The translations under genes were made by a program, and so were the position numbers. A model generated the notes under the pieces. It worked only from the letters and a program-made list of their open reading frames with translations, did no database searches and had not been told where the DNA came from. A DNA stretch of 35,970 nt from an uncultured Pirellulales bacterium. Its GTDB lineage: Bacteria; Planctomycetota; Phycisphaerae; Sedimentisphaerales; Anaerobacaceae. Positions 16,834 to 28,849 of the stretch are shown here, piece after piece (position 1 is the stretch's first letter; each line of letters starts with the position of its first letter). Location of the stretch: NCBI GenBank assembly GCA_964387515.1, contig CAYLXD010000004.1, positions 1 to 35,970 on the forward strand. The letters run 5' to 3'.

Positions 16834-17976
16834 TTGGCAACGAAGAAAGCTCCTGTAAATATGGTTATTATTGTCGGGACGCGTCCCGAGGCCATTAAAA
16901 TGGCGCCGGTGTATCTGGCAATGAAACGGGACTCGCGGCTGAAAGTTACCATGGCAGTAACTGCTCAGCATCGGCATATGCTCGACCAAGTACTGGGAGT
17001 ATTTGGCGTCGTACCTGATATAGACCTTGATATAATGCAACCAAACCAAAATTTGTCTGAGGTTTCTGCTCGTGTAATTGTCGGGATTCATGAATCATTA
17101 TCGCGTATCAAGCCCGACGCAGCGATTGTCCATGGAGATACGGCAACCTGTTTGTTTTCGGCGGTAGCGGCATTTTATCTGCAAATCCCGGTCGGACATG
17201 TTGAGGCGGGCCTGCGCACGTATAATTTCAAGGCGCCATGGCCGGAAGAAATGAATCGCCGGTTAGTTGACCCGATATGCCGATGGTGCTGGGCTCCGAC
17301 CAAAAGTGCGGCTGATAATTTGCGTTCCGAGCATATTCCTGAAGGGAACATTTTTGTGACGGGTAACACCGTAGTAGATGCACTGCATCTTGCCAGGGAT
17401 ATTGTGCGTCGTCGAAAACCAAATATTGAAATGCTCCAGGATAAAATACTGGAAAACAAGCGGCTGATTCTTGTAACGGGGCATCGAAGAGAAAGTTTTG
17501 GCAAGCCATTCGAAGAATTGTGTTACTCCTTAAAGCAACTGGCCCAAAAACACAAAGATGTAGTGCTGGTTTATTCAGTTCACCTGAACCCAAATGTGCA
17601 AAGGCCGGTAAGAAAAATATTGGGTAACCAAGAAAATATTTATTTGATTCCGCCGCTCGAATACCTGCAGTTTGTATATCTGATGGACCGCAGTTATTTC
17701 ATAATCACAGATTCCGGCGGCATACAGGAGGAGGCGCCATCTTTACACAAACCGGTGCTGGTTACACGAGCGGTTACGGAACGACCGGAAGCTGTTCAGG
17801 CCGGCTATTCTATTCTGGTGGGCACTTGTCGAGAAAGGATTCTGGCCGAGGCGTCGCGTCTGTTATGTCAGCCGAAGGTTTATGAAAAAATGTCTATGTC
17901 CACCAATCCCTATGGTGACGGCAGGGCTTCCCAGAGGATTCTCGATTCATTGATATTGACTTTGAGGTCAAAATAA
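16834..17976 (+). CDS. wecB: UDP-N-acetylglucosamine 2-epimerase (non-hydrolysing type)
   Basis: GTRPEAIKMAPV, TAQHRHMLDQVL, HGDTATC, HVEAGLRT, DSGGIQEEAPSL. TTG 16834 is preceded by GGGGGAAA; the alternative start is ATG 16861. Confidence 0.9.
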   Translation: MATKKAPVNMVIIVGTRPEAIKMAPVYLAMKRDSRLKVTMAVTAQHRHMLDQVLGVFGVVPDIDLDIMQPNQNLSEVSARVIVGIHESLSRIKPDAAIVHGDTATCLFSAVAAFYLQIPVGHVEAGLRTYNFKAPWPEEMNRRLVDPICRWCWAPTKSAADNLRSEHIPEGNIFVTGNTVVDALHLARDIVRRRKPNIEMLQDKILENKRLILVTGHRRESFGKPFEELCYSLKQLAQKHKDVVLVYSVHLNPNVQRPVRKILGNQENIYLIPPLEYLQFVYLMDRSYFIITDSGGIQEEAPSLHKPVLVTRAVTERPEAVQAGYSILVGTCRERILAEASRLLCQPKVYEKMSMSTNPYGDGRASQRILDSLILTLRSK

Positions 17977-19091: not shown

Positions 19092-19142
19092 AGTAATCGG
19101 TAGACGATGTTTTTTTGAGTTTAATATATGCAAAGGTGTTTC

Positions 19143-21287
19143 ATGAAGCAGGTTTTGCAGAATCTAAAAACGGGTCAACTGGAGGTTGCTGAGGTGCCGG
19201 CGCCAATGGTAAAACCCGGGCACTTGCTTATACAGACCCGGTGCAGCCTCATATCGAGTGGAACTGAACGAATGCTGGTCTCGTTTGCCAGGAGCGGACT
19301 AATCGGCAAGGCTAAACAGCAGCCGGACAAAGTAAAGCAGGTTATAGATAAAATAAAAACCGATGGTTTACTGCCGACGCTTCACAGCGTTTTTGCCAGG
19401 CTTGATGAGCCGCTGCCACTTGGTTACTGCAATTGCGGTACAGTTATCGAAGTTGGTAAAGGGGTCGGAGAGTTCAAGGTCGGCGACAGGGTCGTAAGCA
19501 ACGGACCACATGCAGAGATAGTCTCTGTCCCCAAGAACCTTTGTGCTAAGGTACCCGACAACGTTACCGATGAGCAAGCGGCATTTGCAGTCTTGGCGTC
19601 GATAGGTATACAAGGCATACGTTTAATTGAGCCGACATTCGGCGAAACTATCGCTATCTTTGGCTTGGGGTTGATAGGACTGATGTCTGTGCAATTGCTG
19701 AAAGCGTGTGGTTGTAGAGTAATAGGGATTGATTTAAGCGCGGACAGGCTGGAGATGGCTCGCAAGTTTGGTGCTGAAGTCATAGATATTTCCGGCGGTT
19801 CAGACCCCGTTGGTGCAGCGATGGCCTATTCGGACAACAAAGGTGTCGATGCGGTGTTGATTACCGCCTCAGCAGAGCGGGACACAATAATTCATCAGTC
19901 GGCACAGATGTGCCGAAAGCGAGGCCGAATAGTTCTGGTTGGTGTTGTGAATTTGCATATTGACCGTGCTGATTTTTACGAGAAAGAGTTGACTTTCCAG
20001 GTTTCGTGTTCGTACGGGCCGGGCCGATATGATACCGAATATGAAGACAAGGGGCATGACTATCCATATGGTTTTGTACGCTGGACGGAGCAAAGGAATT
20101 TCGAAGCAATTCTGAGCAGTATGTCTGCTGGGACACTGTTTGTCGACGATTTGATAAGTGAGCGTATTCCGTTGTCTGAAGCTCCTGAGGCTTACAAGCT
20201 TCTGATGGACGAGCCATCGAAGATGGCCCTTATATTGACATATCCTTATGGTGCAGCTAAAGCCGCTGGGACAATCGAAACCCCCACCGAATATGTCAAG
20301 TCACCTGTTTTTCCGCAGGTTGTGGCCGGCCTGATAGGAGCCGGGAATTTCGCAAAGCTGACGTTACTGCCGGCTGTAAAACCTCTTGGTATTCGTCTTA
20401 AGATGGTTGCTGATATCAATGGTGTTTCAGGAGCGCACACAGCGCGTAAATTTGGTTTTGAAAATGCCACGAACGATTACAAGGAAATACTAATTGACCC
20501 TGAAATAAACATTGTATTTATCACAACGCGCCATGATTTGCATGCTCCTATGGTAATAGAAGCCCTCGAAGCCGGCAAAAATGTACATGTCGAAAAGCCT
20601 TTATGTTTGAATCGAGAGGAACTGGCTTGTGTAAAAGAGGCTTACGAAAAGGCTGATGGTAGACAACTGCTGGTCGGTTTCAACCGACGGTTCTCGCCGC
20701 ATGCGCAAAAGATATACGCACTGGTTGCGACGCGCAGCGCTCCAATGTGTATGAGCTGGCTAATAAACGCCGGACATATCCCGGCAGACGTTTGGGTGCA
20801 GGACAGGGCTGTTGGTGGGGGACGTATAATAGGGGAAGGCTGTCACTGGCTTGATTTTATGAGATATTTAGTGGCTGAACCAATCATCCAAGTATCGGCA
20901 ACTATGGTCGGACAGGCTCGAGGTGTAGAGATTCGCGATGACAAGATGAGCATTACGGTTGGTTTCGCAGATGGCTCAATAGGGACGGTACATTATTTCG
21001 CAAACGGCTATAAGAGTTATCCGAAAGAGACTTTTGAACTTTTCTGTGATGGAAAGATTTTACGGCTGGATAATTTCCGAAAACTCAGCGGTTTCGGCTG
21101 GAGCAATTTCAGGAACATGAACTTGTTCAGCCAGGACAAAGGTCATAAAGCTGAATTTCGTTATTTTGTAGAAAGTATAAAAAGCGGTGGTGACCCTTTG
21201 ATACCGTTTGCTGAAATTGAAAATGTAACCCTTGCGAGTTTTGCAGCCGTCAAATCGGCCGAAGGGGCGGGTCTGGTCAAAATCTAA
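19143..21287 (+). CDS. Bi-domain oxidoreductase: MDR alcohol-dehydrogenase-like N-domain fused to Gfo/Idh/MocA C-domain
   Basis: N-terminal half: MKQVLQNLKTG ... GYCNCGTVIEVGKGV ... IFGLGLIGL (GxGxxG). C-terminal half: VVAGLIGAGNFAK ... VHVEKPL, typical of Gfo/Idh/MocA. ATG 19143 is preferred over 19128. Confidence 0.85.
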   Translation: MKQVLQNLKTGQLEVAEVPAPMVKPGHLLIQTRCSLISSGTERMLVSFARSGLIGKAKQQPDKVKQVIDKIKTDGLLPTLHSVFARLDEPLPLGYCNCGTVIEVGKGVGEFKVGDRVVSNGPHAEIVSVPKNLCAKVPDNVTDEQAAFAVLASIGIQGIRLIEPTFGETIAIFGLGLIGLMSVQLLKACGCRVIGIDLSADRLEMARKFGAEVIDISGGSDPVGAAMAYSDNKGVDAVLITASAERDTIIHQSAQMCRKRGRIVLVGVVNLHIDRADFYEKELTFQVSCSYGPGRYDTEYEDKGHDYPYGFVRWTEQRNFEAILSSMSAGTLFVDDLISERIPLSEAPEAYKLLMDEPSKMALILTYPYGAAKAAGTIETPTEYVKSPVFPQVVAGLIGAGNFAKLTLLPAVKPLGIRLKMVADINGVSGAHTARKFGFENATNDYKEILIDPEINIVFITTRHDLHAPMVIEALEAGKNVHVEKPLCLNREELACVKEAYEKADGRQLLVGFNRRFSPHAQKIYALVATRSAPMCMSWLINAGHIPADVWVQDRAVGGGRIIGEGCHWLDFMRYLVAEPIIQVSATMVGQARGVEIRDDKMSITVGFADGSIGTVHYFANGYKSYPKETFELFCDGKILRLDNFRKLSGFGWSNFRNMNLFSQDKGHKAEFRYFVESIKSGGDPLIPFAEIENVTLASFAAVKSAEGAGLVKI

Positions 21288-21296
21288 AGAGCGTTC

Positions 21297-23453
21297 TTGA
21301 ATAGATTCGAAAAAGCAATTCAATTCATTCGTAACTACGGCATTGGCTTTTGTGTATTTCGCACGCACTATGCGCTCCGTCGGAAAGTCGGGTTGCTGAA
21401 ACGCAAATTTCCTGCCCAACCCTGGTCGCAGATAACACTTTCCGATTGGCTCAAAAGCAGCGCTGACCCTGAGCCGGTAAGCTTTCTTAAAGCCCACCAA
21501 GCCAATGGCGGGCATTTCTTTTTTGACAGTGGTACTATTGTAGGGTTAAACGAATGCTACAAAAAAGAAATCGTATCACAGGCTGACCAGATACTTCAGA
21601 ACCGGTTTCGCTACTTCTTTAACGATTATTACGAGCTTGGCGCCGGTCCCGACTGGTTCCTGAACCCGGTAACCGGTGCCAGAGCAAAGTCTTATCTGCA
21701 CTGGTGTGACATTGACCTTTTCGACCCCACAGTCGGTGATATAAAATTTATCTGGGAGCCATCCCGATTTGCCTGGGTGTATACCTTGGTGCGGGCGTAC
21801 GCGGCAACAGGTGACGAAAAATACGCTGAGAAGTTTTGGACACTGTTTGAGTCTTGGCTCGTTGCCAACCAGCCCAACATAGGGCCGAACTACGCCTGCG
21901 GCCAGGAATGTGCGATTCGTTTGATGGCAATGTGCTTTGCATTGTATGCTTTCTCTCAGGCCCGCCCCAGCACCGTCGAGAGGAAAATAAAACTTGTTAC
22001 CGCAATCGCGGTTCACGCAGACAGAATAGAAAAGAATATAGACTTTGCTATTTCCACCCGCACGAACCATTCTTTAACCGAAGCAGCCGGCCTTTATACT
22101 GCTGGTGTATTATTTCCTGAGTTTGAACGCTCAGAGCATTGGTTAAAACTCGGAAAAAAAGTCTTGATGAAGGAGGGTTTGAAGCAGATTTATCTTGACG
22201 GTGCTTATATCCAGCATTCGATGAATTATCATCGCCTGATGCTGCAGGATTTTCTTTGGGTGCTTCGACTGGCGCAGTTGAACGACGACTCTTTTTGTGA
22301 CGAGTTGTTCTCCCGTGTTAAAAAGGCTGCTGGTTTTCTTTGCCAGATGCAGGATGAATTTAGCGGCAGAATGCCGAACTATGGCCCAAATGATGGAGCT
22401 TTAATTATACCTTTGAATAGCTGTGACTATATGGACTATAGACCTGTTCTGCAGGCAGTGAATTATTTGTTTAATAATGCCAGGTTATATGAGTCAGGGT
22501 CTTGGGATGAAGATTTGGTTTGGCTTTTCGGCCCCCAGGCCTTGGTCGCTCCTTGCAAGCAGGTAGAGCGTAGCAGTAAGGCATATGAGGCGGGGGGGTA
22601 CTATACCCTTCGCAACAATGAAAGCTGGGCAATGATGCGATGCCACAGTTATAGAGACCGTCCCAGCCACGCTGATATGCTCCATCTGGATTTGTGGTGG
22701 AAGGGACATAACATCCTGCGGGATTCCGGCTCGTATATGTATAATTGTGAGCAACCCTGGCAGGACTACTTCGGTTCAACCTTTGCCCACAATACGGTAG
22801 TAGTAAATGGCACCAGTCAGATGCAAAGGCTCACACCCTTTATGTGGTTAGACTGGACGAAGGCAAAACTTACTATGCGCAGGAGTTTTAATGGGGGTGC
22901 CATTGAGATTATGCAGGGTGAGCATTATGGTTTCCGCAAGCCGTACAATGTTATTCATCGTCGGGCGGTTCTGTCATCACAGGATGGTTTTTGGCTGATT
23001 GTCGACGATGTATTGGGAGAGGGGGTTTATGAGGTTGGGGTTTATTGGCAGCTTTGCGACGTCGATTATCAAACCCACGGTAACACCGTGATTTTGCAAA
23101 CGGCTTCGGGACCGGTGTGCCTGGTGCTCTTGGATTCTTCCGGTAGTGGAAAATGCGAATGTTTCAAAGGCAGCGACAGGCCGGCTGGCTGGCAGTCTTT
23201 GTATTATGGGCGTCGTGAGCCTGCGCCGGTGTTCATTTGCTCGGCAAGAGCGGTGCTGCCTGCTCGTTTTATAACTCTTGTCGATCTCGGGGATACGATT
23301 AAAAATGCAGCCTTGGATGGCAGAGAAAAGTTGTCTTGGTTTTCTGAAGTGTCGGGAAAAGAGCACATCGTTGCTCTAAATCTGATTGCAAGCTCCGATA
23401 GGAATATTTTTGTGTTTACCCAGCAGGGTACAGAAAAAATATCTTTGTGTTGA
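21297..23453 (+). CDS. Heparinase II/III-like (alginate-lyase fold) protein without a signal peptide
   Basis: FIWEPSRFAWVYTLVRAYAATGDEKYAEKFWTLFESWLVANQP is the N-terminal alpha/alpha-toroid pattern. SHADMLHLDLWWKGHNILRDSGSYMY is the Hepar_II_III C-domain pattern. TTG start. The N-terminus MNRFEKAIQFIRNYG is not hydrophobic. Confidence 0.8.
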   Translation: MNRFEKAIQFIRNYGIGFCVFRTHYALRRKVGLLKRKFPAQPWSQITLSDWLKSSADPEPVSFLKAHQANGGHFFFDSGTIVGLNECYKKEIVSQADQILQNRFRYFFNDYYELGAGPDWFLNPVTGARAKSYLHWCDIDLFDPTVGDIKFIWEPSRFAWVYTLVRAYAATGDEKYAEKFWTLFESWLVANQPNIGPNYACGQECAIRLMAMCFALYAFSQARPSTVERKIKLVTAIAVHADRIEKNIDFAISTRTNHSLTEAAGLYTAGVLFPEFERSEHWLKLGKKVLMKEGLKQIYLDGAYIQHSMNYHRLMLQDFLWVLRLAQLNDDSFCDELFSRVKKAAGFLCQMQDEFSGRMPNYGPNDGALIIPLNSCDYMDYRPVLQAVNYLFNNARLYESGSWDEDLVWLFGPQALVAPCKQVERSSKAYEAGGYYTLRNNESWAMMRCHSYRDRPSHADMLHLDLWWKGHNILRDSGSYMYNCEQPWQDYFGSTFAHNTVVVNGTSQMQRLTPFMWLDWTKAKLTMRRSFNGGAIEIMQGEHYGFRKPYNVIHRRAVLSSQDGFWLIVDDVLGEGVYEVGVYWQLCDVDYQTHGNTVILQTASGPVCLVLLDSSGSGKCECFKGSDRPAGWQSLYYGRREPAPVFICSARAVLPARFITLVDLGDTIKNAALDGREKLSWFSEVSGKEHIVALNLIASSDRNIFVFTQQGTEKISLC

Positions 23454-23477: not shown

Positions 23478-24713
23478 ATGCGTATTCTTGTAGTTCATCA
23501 GTATTTTCTGGGTAAAAATGACGCCGGTGGTTCCCGCTGGAACCAGTTTGCGAAGTACTGGGCACAGGCGGGACATAAGATTACCGTTCTGGCTGGCACG
23601 GTGCATTACGCCACAGGTAGAAAGCAGCCTGAATATAAGGGCAGATTTATCGTTCGTGAGAGACAAGGAAATAATGTCGACGTGCTGAGATGCTACGTAA
23701 GCGAGGGATACAACAAAAGTTTTGTAGGAAGGTTCTGGGCTTATTTGTCGTTTGCGGTCAGTTCCATCTGGGCTGGCTTGTTTTATGCCGGCAAGTTTGA
23801 CGTAATAATTTGCACATCACCGCCTTTGACCGTTGGTCTTACAGGGTGCGTTTTAGGTGTACTCAAGCGAATTCCAATGGTCTTTGAAGTGCGGGATCTT
23901 TGGCTCGAATCGTTCCTTGACATGGGACTTGTGAAAAATAGATGGGCTATCAAAGTTATGTACTGGCTCCAGAGAAAAATCTATAACTCTGCCAAATGGA
24001 TTAATGTTTTGACACCTGCTTTTGAAGAATTTCTTGTCAAGGTCAATCAAGTTCCTCGGGAAAAAATAAGTATGATTCCTAACGCAGCTGATTTGGACAT
24101 TATCAAGCCAGGTCCACGAAACAACTGGGTACGGGATAAACACCACCTTGGAAATAAGTTTGTTGTTACGTATGTCGGTGCTCATGGGATTACCAACAAA
24201 TTGATGCAGTTGATAGAAGCGGCCAGCATTCTGAAGGAAAAAGACTCTGATGTACAGATTATGCTCGTAGGTGATGGGATAAGAAAACCGATACTTAGGG
24301 AAAAAGTCGCTCAGTTAGGTTTAGATAATATTACTTTTGTGGATTCAGTGCCGAAGAATGTAATTGTTGACTATATTGCTGCCAGTGATGTGTGCACAGC
24401 CGTGCTCCAAAAGCTCGAGTTGTTTAAAGCAATATATCCCAATAAAGTGTTTGACTATATGGCAGCGGCCAGACCTATAATCATTGGCATTGATGGAGTT
24501 GCGAGAAAACTGATCGAGGATGCGGGTTCAGGTATATACGTTGAGCCTGAAAATGCCCAGGAATTTGCCGAGGCAGTATTGAAATTAAAAGAGGACGGGC
24601 AGTGCCGCAGAGAATATGGGGAAAATGGCTTAAATTTCGTAAGGCAGCATTTCTCCAGAGCTTCTTTAGCGGATAAGTATTTAGATATACTGGTTAATAA
24701 GGTGATTGTTTAG
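23478..24713 (+). CDS. GT4-family glycosyltransferase, WbuB-like
   Basis: MRILVVHQYFLGKNDAGGSRWNQFAKYWAQAGHKITVLAG matches the WbuB-type N-terminus. A C-terminal GT-B half is present. Confidence 0.85.
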   Translation: MRILVVHQYFLGKNDAGGSRWNQFAKYWAQAGHKITVLAGTVHYATGRKQPEYKGRFIVRERQGNNVDVLRCYVSEGYNKSFVGRFWAYLSFAVSSIWAGLFYAGKFDVIICTSPPLTVGLTGCVLGVLKRIPMVFEVRDLWLESFLDMGLVKNRWAIKVMYWLQRKIYNSAKWINVLTPAFEEFLVKVNQVPREKISMIPNAADLDIIKPGPRNNWVRDKHHLGNKFVVTYVGAHGITNKLMQLIEAASILKEKDSDVQIMLVGDGIRKPILREKVAQLGLDNITFVDSVPKNVIVDYIAASDVCTAVLQKLELFKAIYPNKVFDYMAAARPIIIGIDGVARKLIEDAGSGIYVEPENAQEFAEAVLKLKEDGQCRREYGENGLNFVRQHFSRASLADKYLDILVNKVIV

Positions 24714-24796
24714 AAAGCGACGAGTACAATAATAACCTTAGGCAATTAGCTGTGGACAAGTTTGCCGAGTTCGAAATTGTATCGAAGAGGGTTTTA

Positions 24797-25714
24797 ATGG
24801 TAAATGCCCTGACGATAGATGTTGAGGATTACTGGAGTATTTTTTCACGAGACTGGCTTGGTCTTGATCAGGAACCCAGTGACGCAGTGGTTAAAAATAC
24901 CGAGTGGTTTCTGGAAACACTCGATCTCTTCAGTGTTAAAGCTACTTTTTTCGTACTGGGTAGGGTGGCAATCAGGTTCCCTGGTTTGGTAAGAAAAATT
25001 GCCCGTGCCGGTCATGAGATTGGAAGCCATGGTATTTCTCACGAGCAGATTTTCAAATTCACCAAAGAGCAGTTTCGCAGCGAGATAACCGATTCTAAGA
25101 AGCTACTCGAAGATATTGTTTCCGGTCTGGTATTTGGATATCGGGCACCGGCCTTTTCTATAATGCCGCAGACAAAATGGGCGCTGGAAGTGTTGGCCGA
25201 AGCAGGCTTTAACTACGACTCGAGTGTTTTTCCGATTTCAGGCAGGCGCTACGGCTGGCCCGGGTTTAGCAGAGATATAGCCAGGATTGAGCTGCCGTCT
25301 GGTCGAACCATTGTTGAAGTTCCAATGTCGACAGTAAGCATTTTGGGCAAAATTCTTCCAGTTGCAGGTGGTGGTTACATAAGACATTTCCCTTACTTTA
25401 TCACAAAATGGGCAATGGAGCACATCCAAAAAAGGAACAGGCCTGTAATAGTTTATGTGCACCCATACGAGGTTGATACCGGTGTGCGAACATTTGATAC
25501 GAAACAACTTTCCTATAAGAAAAGAATCAGAGCGATGAAGTTTCACAAAATGCAGCTAAGAAACAGAAACACCGTTCGCGGAAAACTAACTAAATTGCTG
25601 TCAGAATTTGAATTTGCCACCGTAAAGCAGGTGATAGAAAAAACCGTGGTGCGTTCATATAAGGAGGCCATAAAAGATGAAGTCCGAGACCGCTGGTACA
25701 CAGAGATATTTTGA
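24797..25714 (+). CDS. Polysaccharide deacetylase family protein (DUF3473 / PEP-CTERM-locus subtype)
   Basis: ALTIDVEDYWSIFS, FFVLG, GHEIGSHGISHE, YRAPAFSI. ATG 24797 with GAAGAGG upstream is preferred over GTG 24752. Confidence 0.8.
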   Translation: MVNALTIDVEDYWSIFSRDWLGLDQEPSDAVVKNTEWFLETLDLFSVKATFFVLGRVAIRFPGLVRKIARAGHEIGSHGISHEQIFKFTKEQFRSEITDSKKLLEDIVSGLVFGYRAPAFSIMPQTKWALEVLAEAGFNYDSSVFPISGRRYGWPGFSRDIARIELPSGRTIVEVPMSTVSILGKILPVAGGGYIRHFPYFITKWAMEHIQKRNRPVIVYVHPYEVDTGVRTFDTKQLSYKKRIRAMKFHKMQLRNRNTVRGKLTKLLSEFEFATVKQVIEKTVVRSYKEAIKDEVRDRWYTEIF

Positions 25715-26330
25715 CAGTGTTCCGAAGCGATGGGATGCGCTTTATTCTCATGAGAACCAGTTCAAGTACCTTATAAATAATTGGCTGCGCAAGGGACTTT
25801 ACGAGCGGCATCGACTTACTTTTGAGCATTGTGGTGACCTCTCAGGGAAGAGAGTGTTGGATATAGGATGTGGTACCGGCCGATACAGTATCGAATGTGT
25901 GAGGAGAGGAGCTGCCCACGTCATCGGTATAGATTTCGCGCCATCAATGATTGAATTTTCACGGGAAGTAGCCCAGCAATTGAACGTTGCTGATAAATGT
26001 GAGTTTATCTGTGCTGACTTTCTGGCGTATCCATTTGAAGAGTCTTTCGATATTGTTTTGGCACTTGGTGTTTTTGATTATATAAAAGAACCGGAGCCAA
26101 TGTTCAAAAAGATTGCCACACTGTCACCCCGCAAATTCGTGGCATCATTTCCGAAGTATACTCCTTTTTGGAATATTCAACGCAAAATTCGTTACTACTG
26201 GATCAGAAAATGCCCTATTTATGACTACACCACAGAGCAGTTAGAACGGCTGGCTCGCCAGGCGCCGTTTCCCCACTACCAGATCATTCCATGCAAACGA
26301 GGTTACTTTCTGGCAGGGGGCACTGAGTAA
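25677..26330 (+). CDS. Class I SAM-dependent methyltransferase
   Basis: Motif I is VLDIGCGTGRYS, followed by IGIDFAPSMI and DIVLALGVFDY. The gene overlaps the deacetylase gene by 38 nt. Confidence 0.8.
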   Translation: MKSETAGTQRYFDSVPKRWDALYSHENQFKYLINNWLRKGLYERHRLTFEHCGDLSGKRVLDIGCGTGRYSIECVRRGAAHVIGIDFAPSMIEFSREVAQQLNVADKCEFICADFLAYPFEESFDIVLALGVFDYIKEPEPMFKKIATLSPRKFVASFPKYTPFWNIQRKIRYYWIRKCPIYDYTTEQLERLARQAPFPHYQIIPCKRGYFLAGGTE

Positions 26331-26390
26331 TCTGACTTGTCGGTACAAGTTGTTCGCTCAGATAATCTTCTCCGGAATAAAGTGGGCCGA

Positions 26391-27008
26391 ATGGTAATAA
26401 CTGACATTAACCATGACCACGCTGCACAGATTGCCAAACTGCACATCCAAGGCATAAGTACTGGATTTATCAGCTCGCTCGGCATCGACTTTGTTACCGC
26501 CTTGTATGAGGCAATTGCACAGAGCGAATCCAGCTTTGGTTTTGTGGCGCAGGAAGCCGATAAAATTGTCGGGTTCGTGGCGTTTACTGCAGATATCAAC
26601 GTGCTTTACAGATCAGTTATTTTGAGGAAAGGTTTGCGTTTTGTACTTCTTTTGGCTGGGAAGATGTTGTCTTTACAAAGACTGGGAAGAACTTTTGAGA
26701 CTTTGTTCTATCCCAGCAGAATAAAGAAAATGGATTTACCCAAGGCTGAGCTTCTTTCGATAGTGGTTGCCGAAGAGCATCAGAGCAAAGGGGTAGGGTT
26801 GGCTTTGGTGGAAAGAGGTTTTGAGGAGTGTGTACACAGGAAGATAGAGAAAGTAAAGGTTCTTGTCGGTGCGCGAAAGGAACCGGCAAATAAGTTCTAC
26901 CTGAAGTGTGGCTTTGAGCTTGTTGGGCAGATAGAAAATCACGGTGTGCTCAGCAACATCTACGTAGCAGAGACAAGTAAGAGATGGACCGATGAGAAGT
27001 TTATTTAA
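26391..27008 (+). CDS. GNAT-family N-acetyltransferase
   Basis: VVAEEHQSKGVGLALVERG is the acetyl-CoA-binding Q/RxxGxG motif. Followed by NKFYLKCGFE. The start is ATG 26391 or TTG 26337. Confidence 0.75.
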   Translation: MVITDINHDHAAQIAKLHIQGISTGFISSLGIDFVTALYEAIAQSESSFGFVAQEADKIVGFVAFTADINVLYRSVILRKGLRFVLLLAGKMLSLQRLGRTFETLFYPSRIKKMDLPKAELLSIVVAEEHQSKGVGLALVERGFEECVHRKIEKVKVLVGARKEPANKFYLKCGFELVGQIENHGVLSNIYVAETSKRWTDEKFI

Positions 27009-27609
27009 AAGATTTTTCGATTTGTTAGTTTCGTTGTCTGCGATAGTGGTTTTGCTGCCGGTTTTTGCTGTTATTGTCATTGCGATAAAAATTAGCGGCA
27101 GGGGGCCGGCGATTTTCAGACAAGAGCGGGCAGGCAAAAACGGCAAGCCGTTTGTCTTTTATAAGTTCCGTACAATGAAAGCTGATGTCAATCCGTTCGG
27201 GCCGAGCCCAAAAACCGGCGATGACCCACGCCTGACAAGAGTAGGAAAGTTCCTTCGCGAATATTCGCTTGATGAGTTGCCGCAGTTGTTTAACGTGTTG
27301 AAGGGGGATATGAGTATTATCGGACCTCGGCCGTTGTATATCTCACAGATGGCTGAATGGGATGAAAGGCAAAAAAAGAGGCTGCTCGTTAAGCCGGGCC
27401 TTACGGGTTTGGCTCAGATTTCCGGCAGAGGCGAGCTTACACGTGAAGAAAAACTTGAACTTGATGTAAAATATGTTGAAGCTGCTGGTTTCTGGCCTGA
27501 CTTAAAGATAATTTTCACAACCATTGCCCATGTTTTTGGACGAAAGAATATATACGAGAAGAGATATTCTAAAACCGAACATACGAGAGGGCAGATGAGT
27601 AAAAAGTAA
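26992..27609 (+). CDS. Small monotopic phosphoglycosyl transferase (bacterial sugar transferase, PglC/WbaP-C type)
   Basis: One N-terminal re-entrant helix, then FYKFRTMK and DELPQLFNVLKGDMSIIGPRP. The gene overlaps the GNAT gene by 17 nt. Confidence 0.9.
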   Translation: MRSLFKRFFDLLVSLSAIVVLLPVFAVIVIAIKISGRGPAIFRQERAGKNGKPFVFYKFRTMKADVNPFGPSPKTGDDPRLTRVGKFLREYSLDELPQLFNVLKGDMSIIGPRPLYISQMAEWDERQKKRLLVKPGLTGLAQISGRGELTREEKLELDVKYVEAAGFWPDLKIIFTTIAHVFGRKNIYEKRYSKTEHTRGQMSKK

Positions 27610-27686
27610 TTGGTTGAACGTAATAGTAACTCATAAAGGGTAGGTGGTTTGTCATTAAAGTCAAATACAAAACAAAAATAGAGCGG

Positions 27687-28781
27687 TTGGAACAACTGAG
27701 CGAGGAAGAAAAAGCCCAGCTAAAGAAGGTTACCGAGAAGTTTGCTTTCCGCGCCAATGACTATTATCTGTCGCTTATCAACTGGAGCGACCCAGACGAC
27801 CCGATACGTGCAATTATAATCCCGCACACACAGGAGCCTGACGAGTGGGGTCGGCTGGACCCGTCGGATGAAAAAAGCTATACGGTTCTGCCCGGCCTTG
27901 AGCACAAATATAATTCCACCGCTTTGCTTTTGGTAAGCAACGTCTGTGATGGTATATGCCGCTATTGTTTCCGCAAGCGTGTTTTCATAGAACCGCGGCG
28001 TGAGTATCTGCGGGACCTGTCTGTAGCGGTGCGATACATACGGCAGCATCGTGAGATAACCAATGTACTTTTGACCGGTGGCGACCCCTTGGTACTTGCG
28101 ACGCCGAAACTTGAGACTATTATCCGGCAGCTAAGGGAAATCGAACATGTTCAGATAATTCGTATTGGCACAAAAATCCCGGCGTTTAATCCATATCGGA
28201 TTGTTGACGACCCTTCTTTGCTGGAGATGCTCAGTAGGTACAGCACCGAAAGAAAGAGAATATATTTTATGACTCATTTTGTTCATCCGCGGGAGTTAAC
28301 GGATGTAGCGGTCGAATCTGTTAATTTGCTTTATCATGCCGGTGCAGTTGTAGCCAATCAGATGCCCCTTATAAAGGGTTTGAATGATAATCCTGAAGTT
28401 CTGGCGGAGTTACTTGCGGAGCTATCCTTTATTGGTGCGGTTCCCTATTATATTTTCCAGTGTCGGCCAGCTTTGGGAAACAGGATTTATACACTGCCGA
28501 TTGAACAAGGGTATGAAATTATAGAGCAGGCCAAATCGCTGGTTTCAGGGCTGGCAAAGCGAGCTCGGTTTGTAATGTCGCATTCAAATGGAAAAATAGA
28601 AATCGCAGGTAAAACAGAAAAACGCGTCTATTTTAAGTATCACCGTGCCGCCTCTGATGAGGACAGCGGCAGATTCATGGTCTTCAAGAGTAATCCGAAT
28701 GCCTACTGGCTTGATGATTACGATGAGATAATTCACGATTATCCTGTTAATTTGCCTTATAGGTTGTATGGGCCGGAGTGA
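27687..28781 (+). CDS. KamA-family radical SAM / PLP aminomutase
   Basis: CDGICRYC (Cys87, Cys91, Cys94; codons 27945-27968), LLTGGDPL, YYIFQC, SNGK (putative PLP lysine, codon 28593-28595). The first canonical start is TTG 27687, but the frame is open from 27630. Confidence 0.85.
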   Translation: MEQLSEEEKAQLKKVTEKFAFRANDYYLSLINWSDPDDPIRAIIIPHTQEPDEWGRLDPSDEKSYTVLPGLEHKYNSTALLLVSNVCDGICRYCFRKRVFIEPRREYLRDLSVAVRYIRQHREITNVLLTGGDPLVLATPKLETIIRQLREIEHVQIIRIGTKIPAFNPYRIVDDPSLLEMLSRYSTERKRIYFMTHFVHPRELTDVAVESVNLLYHAGAVVANQMPLIKGLNDNPEVLAELLAELSFIGAVPYYIFQCRPALGNRIYTLPIEQGYEIIEQAKSLVSGLAKRARFVMSHSNGKIEIAGKTEKRVYFKYHRAASDEDSGRFMVFKSNPNAYWLDDYDEIIHDYPVNLPYRLYGPE

Positions 28782-28822
28782 AATCAAGGTTTTTTGATTT
28801 TAAGTTTTGGGTCGATTGAGTG

Positions 28823-28849
28823 CCCCCGTACAATCGGGGGTTAATTTTT
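28823..28849 (+). terminator. Rho-independent terminator-like hairpin after the KamA-like gene
   Basis: Stem CCCCCG (28823-28828) pairs with CGGGGG (28835-28840). The loop is TACAAT and TTAATTTTT follows. Confidence 0.5.

Follow-up and report, generated by a model that had tools for sequence, protein, structure and literature searches.

Among the glycans that contain L-GalNAcA or related L-hexosaminuronic acids are the main exopolysaccharide of Ralstonia wilt disease, the polysaccharide of Vibrio vulnificus YJ016 and several O antigens of Pseudomonas aeruginosa; the D-manno and L-galacto configurations differ from each other at C3 and C5 only. In the literature searched, no enzyme has been assigned to the C3 and C5 inversions that yield L-GalNAcA. 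When considered from the side of the glycan, two organisms are of particular relevance, since the structure alpha-L-GalNAcA-(1->3)-D-Bac is listed for both P. solanacearum GMI1000 and V. vulnificus YJ016 (PMC11200240). From the side of the genes, in-frame deletion of either VV0357, a Zn-dehydrogenase, or VV0358, whose product is heparinase II/III-like, abolishes the capsule of V. vulnificus, and each deletion can be complemented (PMC6037467). The genetic requirement for these two genes, and likewise the occurrence of L-GalNAcA in glycans of Ralstonia and Vibrio, are taken here from the literature, and the link to L-GalNAcA is built on these two organisms. The Ralstonia solanacearum EPS-I operon opens with wecB-wecC, and the sole uronate precursor that it encodes is UDP-ManNAcA, while the polymer contains L-GalNAcA. 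[quoted passage not shown]

The window analysed here, a stretch of 35,970 bp that represents an entire contig of a Planctomycetota-like MAG, carries a block of genes in the same order as Ralstonia EPS-I, namely OR, HEP, a GT4 glycosyltransferase, a phosphoglycosyl transferase (PGT), an acetyltransferase and DegT (Table 1). Identity to the Ralstonia proteins amounts to 52% over the full length of OR, 33% for HEP (E 9e-81; the two share their N-terminal motif as well as the invariant residues), 31% for GT4 and 42% for PGT, and the WecB of the window, which exceeds the cut-off of its TIGR00236 model with 459.8 bits, is 50% identical to Ralstonia EpsC. In some records, the Ralstonia GT4 that adjoins HEP is annotated as 'glycosyltransferase WbuB'. 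Proteobacterial HEPs are shorter than the window protein, with about 610 residues compared with 718, and lack a segment of about 35 residues after the first helix. VV0357 and VV0358 of V. vulnificus YJ016 are likened to the OR-HEP pair by published descriptions alone. Cluster look-ups for HEP returned other Pseudomonas species as well as Stutzerimonas and Thauera species, and no P. aeruginosa. The synteny with Ralstonia, as well as the location, fold, residues, cassette conservation and fusions considered below, was read directly.

The original prediction had placed HEP 9 bp after an oxidoreductase fusion, with a WbuB-like GT4 following 24 bp downstream, and both gaps are exact. No terminator-like site was found in either of them, and the hairpin listed in Table 1 is the sole convincing plus-strand terminator near HEP, it being understood that promoter-like and terminator-like matches in the window do not rise above shuffled controls. 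A UDP-sugar 6-dehydrogenase is absent from the window, and hence from the whole contig; thus, the source of any uronic acid is not visible in it, and this counts against the epimerase reading put forward below.

Table 1. Coordinates of HEP, its domains and the neighbouring features within the 35,970-bp window.
Feature	Position	Strand	Basis
WecB-type non-hydrolysing UDP-GlcNAc 2-epimerase, UDP-ManNAc supplier	16834..17976	+	TIGR00236
OR: bi-domain oxidoreductase, MDR/ADH-like N half and Gfo/Idh/MocA C half	19128..21287	+	Pfam
HEP: signal-less protein of the PL12/heparinase-III fold; 718 aa, TTG start	21297..23453	+	
HEP N-terminal helical segment, residues 1-100, conserved basic motif GLLKRKFP	21297..21596	+	alignment
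HEP alpha/alpha toroid, residues ~150-417; invariant N257-H258 (22065-22070), Q306, Y311 (22227-22229), R313	21744..22547	+	
HEP C-terminal beta-sandwich, residues ~435-716	22599..23444	+	model, alignment
GT4 glycosyltransferase, WbuB/WcaI-like	23478..24713	+	Pfam, NCBIfam
GNAT acyltransferase, member of the HEP block	26337..27008	+	Pfam
Small Bac_transf phosphoglycosyl transferase (PGT), PglC-like primer	26992..27609	+	Pfam 3.6e-66
Intrinsic-terminator-like hairpin, first convincing one 3' of the block	28822..28841	+	

HEP had been predicted to have no hydrophobic N-terminus, and the hydropathy profiles bear this out for the protein and for its family. Within the first 40 residues, the best stretch of 10 residues reaches about 1.2 on the Kyte-Doolittle scale, compared with about 3.1 in synthetic Sec leaders, the best stretch of 19 residues in the whole protein (1.53) is located in the C-terminal beta domain, and hydropathy of the signal-peptide or transmembrane type is found in none of 291 homologues (0 of 116 of the window type and 0 of 175 of the Ralstonia type). 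A signal supplied from an upstream start, which the original prediction had considered, is excluded: the TAA stop of OR is in frame with the TTG start of HEP, with three sense codons between them, so that no upstream start can supply a leader. The N-terminus itself is formed by a helix with the conserved positions G15...R22...Y25...G32, which is common to both subfamilies and whose segment is conserved from about residue 5 in 24 homologues; judged from its sequence, this helix is not a leader peptide. HEP homologues are also present in Gram-positive Bacillales. Some enzymes with this fold are cytoplasmic, the oligo-uronide lyases of PL15 and PL17 among them. The missing signal alone is thus unremarkable, and it is the biosynthetic context that carries weight.

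The order OR, HEP and GT4, followed by a priming transferase, an acyltransferase and an aminotransferase, is found across many phyla, including Bacillales, and a Pfam census of the ORFs around HEP in 15 loci (113 ORFs) returned biosynthetic families exclusively. Of 70 loci, 65 contain a GT4, which in 50 of them stands directly 3' of HEP; for OR, 45 of 64 loci have it at a distance of 10 kb or less. The pairing of HEP with GT4 is tighter than that with OR, and the loci without OR within this distance (approximately 30%) count against the epimerase reading. Two explanations concerning OR were considered and rejected. The OR-less loci do not form a HEP subfamily of their own, as the absence is scattered over the tree with 13 changes and no clustering, and OR is not a stand-in for a UDP-sugar 6-dehydrogenase, since several loci and Ralstonia carry both. 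The GFO half of OR has pyranose C3-dehydrogenases as its nearest relatives and the MDR half has secondary-alcohol and polyol dehydrogenases as well as ketone and secondary-alcohol reductases, with quinone and enoyl reductases also among the MDR relatives. With respect to the sugar precursors, a WecB-like gene is located immediately 5' of HEP in eight loci, WecC-like UDP-HexNAc dehydrogenases occur directly after or within the HEP-GT4 pair in Bacillales and in other loci, and the E. coli clusters that contain a HEP-like and GT4 pair begin with wecB-wecC. In related loci, PGT recurs 3' of GT4 and GNAT genes recur downstream. Moreover, natural fusion proteins exist in which HEP is joined to GT4 (P0331), to GNAT (P0110, P0322 and P0324) or to a transferase of the WecA/MraY type (P0367). 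The family comprises 2,736 clusters (50% identity, E <= 1e-30), and its members without exception bear the name of a 'heparinase II/III' or an 'alginate lyase' family protein; no function is assigned to it in the full-text literature searched, where the relevant hits were confined to the V. vulnificus genetics, a mention in a Ralstonia fitness screen and the list of L-GalNAcA-Bac glycans.

From a structural point of view, HEP combines an alpha/alpha-toroid with a beta-sandwich, as PL12 enzymes do, and matches the Pfam families Hepar_II_III_N at residues 90-351 (1.3e-32) and Hepar_II_III_C at residues 425-624 (2e-35). The borders given for the toroid and the beta-sandwich in Table 1 follow the secondary structure of a predicted AlphaFold2 model with a mean pLDDT of 88 and a pTM of 0.91. 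When this model was submitted to Foldseek, the best matches were heparinase III structures (E about 1e-25), and DS-epimerase 1 (6HZN) was retrieved with an E value of 1.7e-15 and a TMq of 0.60, the second-highest TMq among the matches listed. At the level of sequence profiles, PL12 heparinases were the only matches in the PDB (9e-33), and no homology between HEP and dermatan-sulfate epimerase (DSE) was detected by this search of PDB sequences. HEP stays below the cut-offs of the NCBIfam HepC equivalogs (600 and 700 bits), its scores being 97 and 95.9 bits.

In an alignment of 60 sequences that covers both subfamilies, N257, H258, Y311 and R313 of HEP are invariant, and N257/H258 and Y311 align with N240/H241 and Y294 of heparinase III, which in the Pedobacter enzyme are the carboxylate-neutralising pair and the catalytic Tyr, respectively, with H424 as the beta-domain His. 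At the position of this last residue, the loop alignment places Pro456 in HEP and Pro in 59 of the 60 sequences, and a His or Gln is found two residues further on. The beta domain of HEP additionally contains invariant D460, D465, N472 and D476 and nearly invariant H463 and H498, whilst W153-E154-R157, C201-G202-Q203-E204, N365-D366-G367 and R556 are invariants of HEP without a counterpart in the lyases. Loss of the catalytic residues had been named in the original prediction as an outcome that would speak against it, and on this point the result is divided: the Tyr and the Asn-His pair are kept, but the beta-domain His is replaced, and its replacement by Pro456 counts against epimerisation because a second acid/base residue is needed for that reaction. 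H258 and Y311 are spaced by 53 residues, in keeping with expectation, and the comparison with DSE, whose His/Tyr/His catalytic set is H205, Y261 and H450, covers two of these three residues. Even so, the invariance of the Asn-His pair and the Tyr across subfamilies that are about 30% identical argues for uronate C5 chemistry having probably been retained. In heparinase catalysis, a His-Tyr couple provides base and acid (PMC7904915).

The reading that we prefer, and to which we would give slightly better than an even chance, is that HEP is a cytoplasmic uronate C5-epimerase that would, together with a C3-inverting OR, convert D-ManNAcA into L-GalNAcA. In its general form, the proposal that HEP is a non-degradative cytoplasmic enzyme exerting lyase-type C5 chemistry on a nucleotide- or lipid-linked uronate had been made from the start, and it finds support in the context, the fusions, the synteny with Ralstonia EPS-I, the capsule requirement for the V. 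vulnificus pair, the L-GalNAcA glycans of these two organisms, the residues and the fold; the epimerase chemistry, the role of OR, the sequence in which the steps take place and which sugar the window organism makes are what we infer beyond this. D-ManNAcA would be made by WecB and a WecC-type dehydrogenase. The Gfo/Idh/MocA half of OR would then oxidise the C3 hydroxyl and the MDR half would reduce the resulting ketone from the opposite face, so that C3 would be inverted. HEP would act on a non-reducing-end or UDP-linked 2-acetamido-hexuronic acid, with the Asn-His pair neutralising the uronate carboxylate and the Tyr serving as both base and acid, and the C5 proton would be abstracted. As O4 of such a substrate would bear no glycosidic leaving group, the enolate would be re-protonated on the opposite face, and the outcome would be C5 epimerisation instead of chain cleavage. 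Finally, the WbuB-like GT4 would add L-GalNAcA onto a bacillosamine-type primer. As to whether the substrate of HEP is UDP-linked or undecaprenyl-linked, we lean modestly towards the former. It is also possible, although we would put this somewhat below an even chance, that OR and HEP constitute a previously unrecognised two-enzyme 3,5-epimerisation system leading from UDP-D-ManNAcA to UDP-L-GalNAcA, in which C3 would be inverted via oxidation and subsequent reduction on two fused Rossmann domains and C5 via a lyase-derived, carboxylate-assisted proton shuttle. The conversion of D-ManNAcA into L-GalNAcA demands an inversion at C5 and the Ralstonia operon encodes no other candidate for it, which favours HEP.

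Some observations run against the epimerase reading in addition to those already mentioned. GT4 enzymes are classed as retaining, whereas a transferase that forms an alpha-L product out of a UDP-beta-L donor would have to invert. C5-epimerised HexNAcA has been proposed to arise by other routes, for instance with VpsJ of V. cholerae, and Ralstonia transposon mutants in OR and HEP display mild fitness effects only.

Among the alternatives, the one that survives best would have HEP perform another chemistry or none at all, acting as a C3 or C2 isomerase, as a scaffold that presents lipid-linked intermediates to OR and GT4, or as a chaperone of GT4. The loss of the canonical beta-domain His, the many invariant residues for which the lyases have no equivalent and the closer pairing with GT4 than with OR would all be in line with such a role, but we regard it as unlikely, given that precisely the Asn-His pair and the Tyr have remained invariant over subfamilies of such low identity and that the required C5 inversion has no alternative enzyme candidate in the Ralstonia operon. 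HEP might also be a cytoplasmic beta-eliminase or dehydratase, by which O4 would be removed from a UDP- or lipid-linked uronate to produce a 4-deoxy-4,5-unsaturated hexenuronate, and OR would subsequently turn this product into a sugar acid that is 4-deoxy or rearranged in another way, for example through enoyl reduction by its MDR half. This appears improbable to us, since a free 4-OH leaves poorly, the beta-domain His of the heparinases is missing and the two characterised glycans of cassette carriers hold L-GalNAcA, in which the 4-OH is kept, and no 4-deoxy sugar, despite the intact lyase Tyr and Asn-His pair, the tight coupling of OR and HEP and the quinone and enoyl reductases among the MDR relatives, all of which would suit an eliminase. 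Lastly, the housekeeping-lyase interpretation proposed for V. vulnificus VV0358 (PMC6037467), according to which HEP would be exported by a non-classical route and, like AlgL, act on misdirected polymer or on chain length, can draw on a fold and Pfam family typical of depolymerases and on the precedent of a lyase in the biosynthetic operons of alginate, but is very improbable in view of the 291 homologues, Gram-positive ones included, that are devoid of a signal or transmembrane segment, the in-frame stop upstream of HEP, its fusions to cytoplasmic GT4 and GNAT, the complete loss rather than alteration of the capsule upon deletion of VV0358, the fact that Wzx/Wzy pathways have no cytoplasmic polymer, and a HepC score (97 bits) far from the cut-offs of 600-700.

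If the two-enzyme reading of OR and HEP is true, HEP would be the first C5-epimerase for a nucleotide sugar or a lipid-linked monosaccharide to be built on a polysaccharide-lyase scaffold, and thousands of 'heparinase/alginate lyase' genes in genomes and metagenomes would actually be biosynthetic. Automated surveys of polysaccharide degradation probably miscount genes of the HEP type as degraders, above all in environmental phyla such as Planctomycetota. HEP and OR would provide a concrete and testable candidate pair for the inversions at C3 and C5 that lead to L-GalNAcA.

Compared with known systems, HEP shares with the AlgL-type lyases the position of a lyase-family gene inside a biosynthetic operon. 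However, AlgL belongs to PL5, consists of a single domain and is carried by its signal to the periplasm, whereas HEP has two domains and no signal, and is fused to cytoplasmic enzymes in some of its relatives. The PL12 enzymes heparinase III/HepC (Pedobacter heparinus 4MMH; Bacteroides thetaiotaomicron BT4657 5JMD and 4FNV) have the same two-domain fold as HEP, and their Asn-His pair and catalytic Tyr are aligned with those of HEP, but the identity is only 18-19%, and HEP diverges from them in the absence of a signal peptide, its biosynthetic context, an additional conserved N-terminal helical segment and Pro456. Neither the hydropathy nor the neighbour genes of HEP indicate an exported enzyme in a catabolic locus, as is typical of PL12. 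As regards the proposed reaction, precedents are offered by V. cholerae VpsJ and Halobacterium Agl32, alpha-helical toroids associated with C5 epimerisation of a uronate while it is part of a short lipid-linked glycan facing the cytoplasm; VpsJ is a proposed C5-epimerase that would convert bactoprenyl-PP-linked ManNAcA to L-GulNAcA. Both are described as having one domain and as similar to the N-acylglucosamine 2-epimerase family, in contrast to the PL12-like two-domain HEP, and they were therefore dropped as relatives and kept as analogues only. Human DSE (6HZN), in turn, is a strong structural match to HEP and, built on a lyase fold, epimerises a uronic acid at C5 without chain cleavage, although it does so on internal GlcA of a polymer and in the Golgi lumen, unlike the setting proposed for HEP. 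In bacteria, the HEP family would parallel animal dermatan-sulfate epimerase, whose evolution likewise started from a lyase fold.

The heparinase II/III-like protein HEP is very probably a cytoplasmic biosynthetic enzyme of some kind and not a degradative lyase, a possibility already raised in the original prediction and now supported by genomic context, predicted fusions and the missing export signal. Its gene belongs to a single long plus-strand polysaccharide locus, where it was confirmed to follow the end of the bi-domain oxidoreductase (OR) gene by 9 bp and to precede a WbuB-like glycosyltransferase (GT4) gene by 24 bp, with no terminator-like site in either gap. The remaining biosynthetic genes of the window encode GDP-sugar dehydratases, a DegT aminotransferase, two WecB-type 2-epimerases, Wzx, Wzy, several glycosyltransferases, an XrtA-type polysaccharide deacetylase, a methyltransferase, a GNAT protein, a small Bac_transf priming transferase (PGT) and a radical-SAM enzyme. 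The last five of these lie 3' of GT4 (24752-28781), an arrangement suggestive of amino-sugar re-acylation with an unusual acyl or beta-amino-acyl group; the deacetylase scores 260 bits, slightly below the TIGR03006 cut-off of 276. Despite the two 2-epimerases, no UDP-sugar 6-dehydrogenase homologue was found by phmmer or tblastn in the whole 35,970-bp window; any hexosaminuronic acid made by the locus would depend on a dehydrogenase gene located elsewhere.

Positions of the features discussed, and identity of window proteins to their Ralstonia EPS-I counterparts
Feature	Position	Strand	Description	Identity to EPS-I counterpart
OR	19128-21287	+	719 aa; MDR/zinc-ADH-like domain fused to Gfo/Idh/MocA domain	52%, full length
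HEP	21297-23453	+	718 residues, TTG start	33%, E 9e-81
GT4	23478-24713	+	glycosyltransferase	31%
PGT			priming transferase	42%
WecB			2-epimerase	50%
Terminator	28822-28841	+	first good terminator downstream	
L085	4729-14324		HEP-like locus, E. coli plasmid pCRE10.2, NZ_CP034402.1	
L086	1469-13648		HEP-like locus, E. coli AR_0077 chromosome	

The absence of an export signal was judged by hydropathy, conservation and the upstream stop, and agrees with the lack of a hydrophobic N-terminus in the original prediction. Within the first 40 residues the top 10-residue window reaches about 1.2 on the Kyte-Doolittle scale, versus about 3.1 for synthetic Sec leaders, and the best 19-residue window of the whole protein (1.53) falls in the C-terminal beta domain. 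Signal-peptide or transmembrane-like hydropathy was likewise seen in none of 116 close homologues and none of 175 Ralstonia-type homologues. Where a leader would be, HEP has a conserved helix carrying a basic motif, which both subfamilies share and which can be aligned from about residue 5 onwards in every homologue. A leader from an upstream start, which would have overturned the prediction, is impossible because the TAA stop of OR is in frame with the HEP TTG, only three sense codons before it (21285-21299: TAA AGA GCG TTC TTG). The two functionally coupled genes are thus parted by one stop codon in a shared frame; no single-polypeptide OR-HEP fusion was seen among the matches listed. HEP homologues are also present in genera that lack a periplasm (Bacillus, Paenibacillus, Peribacillus and Lederbergia).

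Natural fusions were sought among HEP representatives at 50% identity, with database gene calls taken as given. One predicted protein (P0331, 1143 aa) joins HEP to a complete GT4, three others (P0110, P0322 and P0324) carry a C-terminal GNAT domain, and in P0367 an N-terminal Glycos_transf_4 domain of the WecA/MraY type precedes HEP. Since the substrates of GT4 and GNAT enzymes, UDP-sugars and acetyl-CoA, are cytoplasmic, these predicted fusions would be separate evidence that HEP works at the cytoplasmic face and is functionally linked to repeat-unit assembly.

The same association recurs in other genomes. A scan of species-representative genomes with HEP gave 80 loci, whose ORFs were probed with the window's proteins, spanning Planctomycetota, Actinomycetota, Bacteroidota, Myxococcota, Thermodesulfobacteriota, Acidobacteriota, Verrucomicrobiota, Chloroflexota, Bacillota and KSB1. 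Of the 70 loci with sufficient flank, 50 have a same-strand GT4 homologue directly 3' of HEP, and 65 have one anywhere in the locus; the bi-domain OR was found in 45 of 64 loci, directly upstream of HEP in 31, and in eight loci a WecB-type epimerase lies between the two. Beyond GT4 there typically follow a small Bac_transf priming transferase, a PglD- or GNAT-type acyltransferase and a DegT aminotransferase, a set that marks a bacillosamine-type primer. Twelve loci encode a UDP-sugar 6-dehydrogenase, right after GT4 or between HEP and GT4, and the best-scoring class for the Bacillales copies is UDP-ManNAc dehydrogenase. Among 113 same-strand neighbours drawn from 15 diverse loci, the Pfam families were all biosynthetic (GT4, GFO, ADH_zinc_N, Hexapep/PglD_N, Bac_transf, Polysacc_synt_2, DegT and Wzy), with no uptake or catabolic family. 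A planctomycetotal locus with the OR-HEP-GT4 trio (L001/L009, 11504-14046) has 3-hydroxyacyl-CoA dehydrogenase and thiolase genes after GT4, which could supply 3-hydroxybutyryl groups, recalling the 3-hydroxybutanoyl-bacillosamine of Ralstonia EPS I. On the HEP tree, loci without OR within 10 kb are scattered and not clade-specific, and Actinomycetota sequences are nested among those of Planctomycetota, a sign either that the cassette moved horizontally between phyla or that sequences were misbinned. The closest relatives of the window's HEP on this tree (65% identity) come from Actinomycetota MAGs (L006 and L008) inside the Planctomycetota clade.

From a structural point of view, HEP carries the Pfam domains Hepar_II_III_N (residues 90-351, 1.3e-32) and Hepar_II_III_C (residues 425-624, 2e-35), and its sole NCBIfam matches are two HepC (heparin-sulfate lyase) equivalogs, which score 97 and 96 bits versus cut-offs of 600 and 700. 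An AlphaFold2 model built with 24 homologues as input (mean pLDDT 88, pTM 0.91) predicts an N-terminal helical segment, an alpha/alpha toroid (about 150-417) and a beta-sandwich (about 435-716). Foldseek against the PDB places PL12 heparinase III structures on top (E about 1e-25), followed by PL15, PL17, PL33 and PL8 lyases, and the sequence profile reaches heparinase III entries alone (9e-33). N257-H258 and Y311 of HEP align with N240-H241 and Y294 of heparinase III, in the numbering of the Pedobacter enzyme. Across 60 sequences from the window-type and Ralstonia-type subfamilies, which share about 30% identity, N257, H258, E262, Q306, Y311 and R313 are invariant. In heparinases a His-Tyr pair serves as base and acid (PMC7904915). 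The correspondence of catalytic residues holds for Asn-His and Tyr and fails for the beta-domain His, which aligns with the near-invariant Pro456, with His or Gln two residues on; H463, H498 and H554 are nearly invariant and particular to the family. Judged from these alignments, HEP keeps the half of the lyase site that binds the uronate and abstracts the C5 proton, the canonical partner His being gone.

A tblastn search of plasmid records matched 132 Ralstonia megaplasmids, inside the EPS-I exopolysaccharide operon. This operon runs wza, wzb, wzc, wecB (epsC), wecC (epsD), epsE, epsF, GT4 and acyltransferase, then a Gfo/Idh/MocA oxidoreductase (713 aa), a heparinase II/III-family protein (612 aa), a GT4 labelled 'WbuB' in several records, a sugar transferase, an acetyltransferase and DegT. 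EPS-I genes with fitness effects in a 2026 preprint include 'the dehydrogenase' and 'the heparinase-family protein'. In Vibrio vulnificus YJ016, in-frame deletion of either VV0357, a 'zinc-binding dehydrogenase', or VV0358, heparinase II/III-like (pfam07940), abolishes capsule, serum resistance and virulence, both deletions being complementable (PMC6037467); it is by these descriptions that the pair is likened to OR and HEP. That study proposed a periplasmic clearing lyase for the heparinase-like protein, a role that the missing signal makes improbable for HEP. Glycans with alpha-L-GalNAcA-(1->3)-D-Bac are listed for both Ralstonia GMI1000 and V. vulnificus YJ016 (PMC11200240); therefore, both organisms in which an OR/HEP-type pair was noticed make L-GalNAcA attached to bacillosamine. 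This correlation covers these two organisms, and such glycans match a cassette with HEP-GT4 beside bacillosamine-primer genes.

More distant relatives occur in E. coli as a pair, namely an 'alginate lyase family' protein of 541 aa (22% identity; family HMM E 3e-29) and a GT4 32% identical to that of the window. The pair follows wecB-wecC on IS26-flanked segments of IncC plasmids and also occurs in the galF-gnd locus of four chromosomes, in neither case with OR beside it. On the IncC resistance plasmids the order is wecB, wecC, DUF2837, wzy, GT, HEP-like, GT4 and nucleotidyltransferase, and four further E. coli plasmids carry the pair at 100% identity; the galF-gnd copies share about 70% DNA identity, and AR_0077, the one examined, has O8-type wzm/wzt too. 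These pairs widen the association of HEP-like proteins and GT4 with ManNAcA supply, and suggest that HEP alone, without OR, makes a simple C5 epimer.

The sole uronate precursor encoded by the EPS-I operon is UDP-D-ManNAcA (WecB and WecC). The D-manno and L-galacto configurations differ at C3 and C5 only, the same relation as that handled by GDP-mannose 3,5-epimerase. Once the primer pathway, the two glycosyltransferases and the export proteins are assigned, the main enzymes still lacking a role are OR and HEP; a small acyltransferase and a hypothetical protein are left over too. On balance, we slightly favour HEP as a lyase-fold C5-epimerase partnered with a C3-inverting OR for L-GalNAcA synthesis, by a mechanism that we infer throughout. 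OR would oxidise the C3 hydroxyl on one domain and reduce the ketone from the opposite face on the other. Its relatives fit this by sequence: the Gfo/Idh/MocA half is nearest pyranose C3-dehydrogenases (levoglucosan dehydrogenase, DgpA, glucuronide-3-dehydrogenase; weakly WbpB), and the MDR half is nearest secondary-alcohol and polyol dehydrogenases. A 3-keto intermediate is no beta-keto acid; with a 4-keto one there would be a danger of decarboxylation, as in UDP-xylose synthase chemistry. HEP would invert C5 via a carboxylate-stabilised enolate on a substrate that is UDP-linked or at a non-reducing end, with no glycosidic leaving group at O4, so that the first half-reaction of a lyase would end in re-protonation and not in cleavage; in the window's organism the uronate source is assumed. 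Because WbuB-type GT4s transfer L-FucNAc, the 6-deoxy analogue of L-GalNAcA, we lean moderately towards a nucleotide-level substrate. Against this proposal, other solutions for C5 inversion have been put forward, e.g., VpsJ, and GT4 is a retaining family, yet going from a UDP-beta-L donor to an alpha-L product means inversion, a puzzle that WbuB poses equally.

The family comprises 2,736 clusters at 50% identity (E <= 1e-30; 12,870 at E <= 1e-3), uniformly annotated as heparinase or alginate lyase, and the window's HEP is one ordinary member of it. Full-text literature searches found no functional assignment for the family, and the reading of a C5-epimerase with a C3-inverting OR for L-GalNAcA appears to be new. 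Lyase-fold uronyl epimerases as such are already known in the form of dermatan-sulfate epimerase, and the human enzyme DS-epimerase 1 (6HZN) matches the HEP model with the second-highest TMq of the Foldseek list (0.60, E 1.7e-15).
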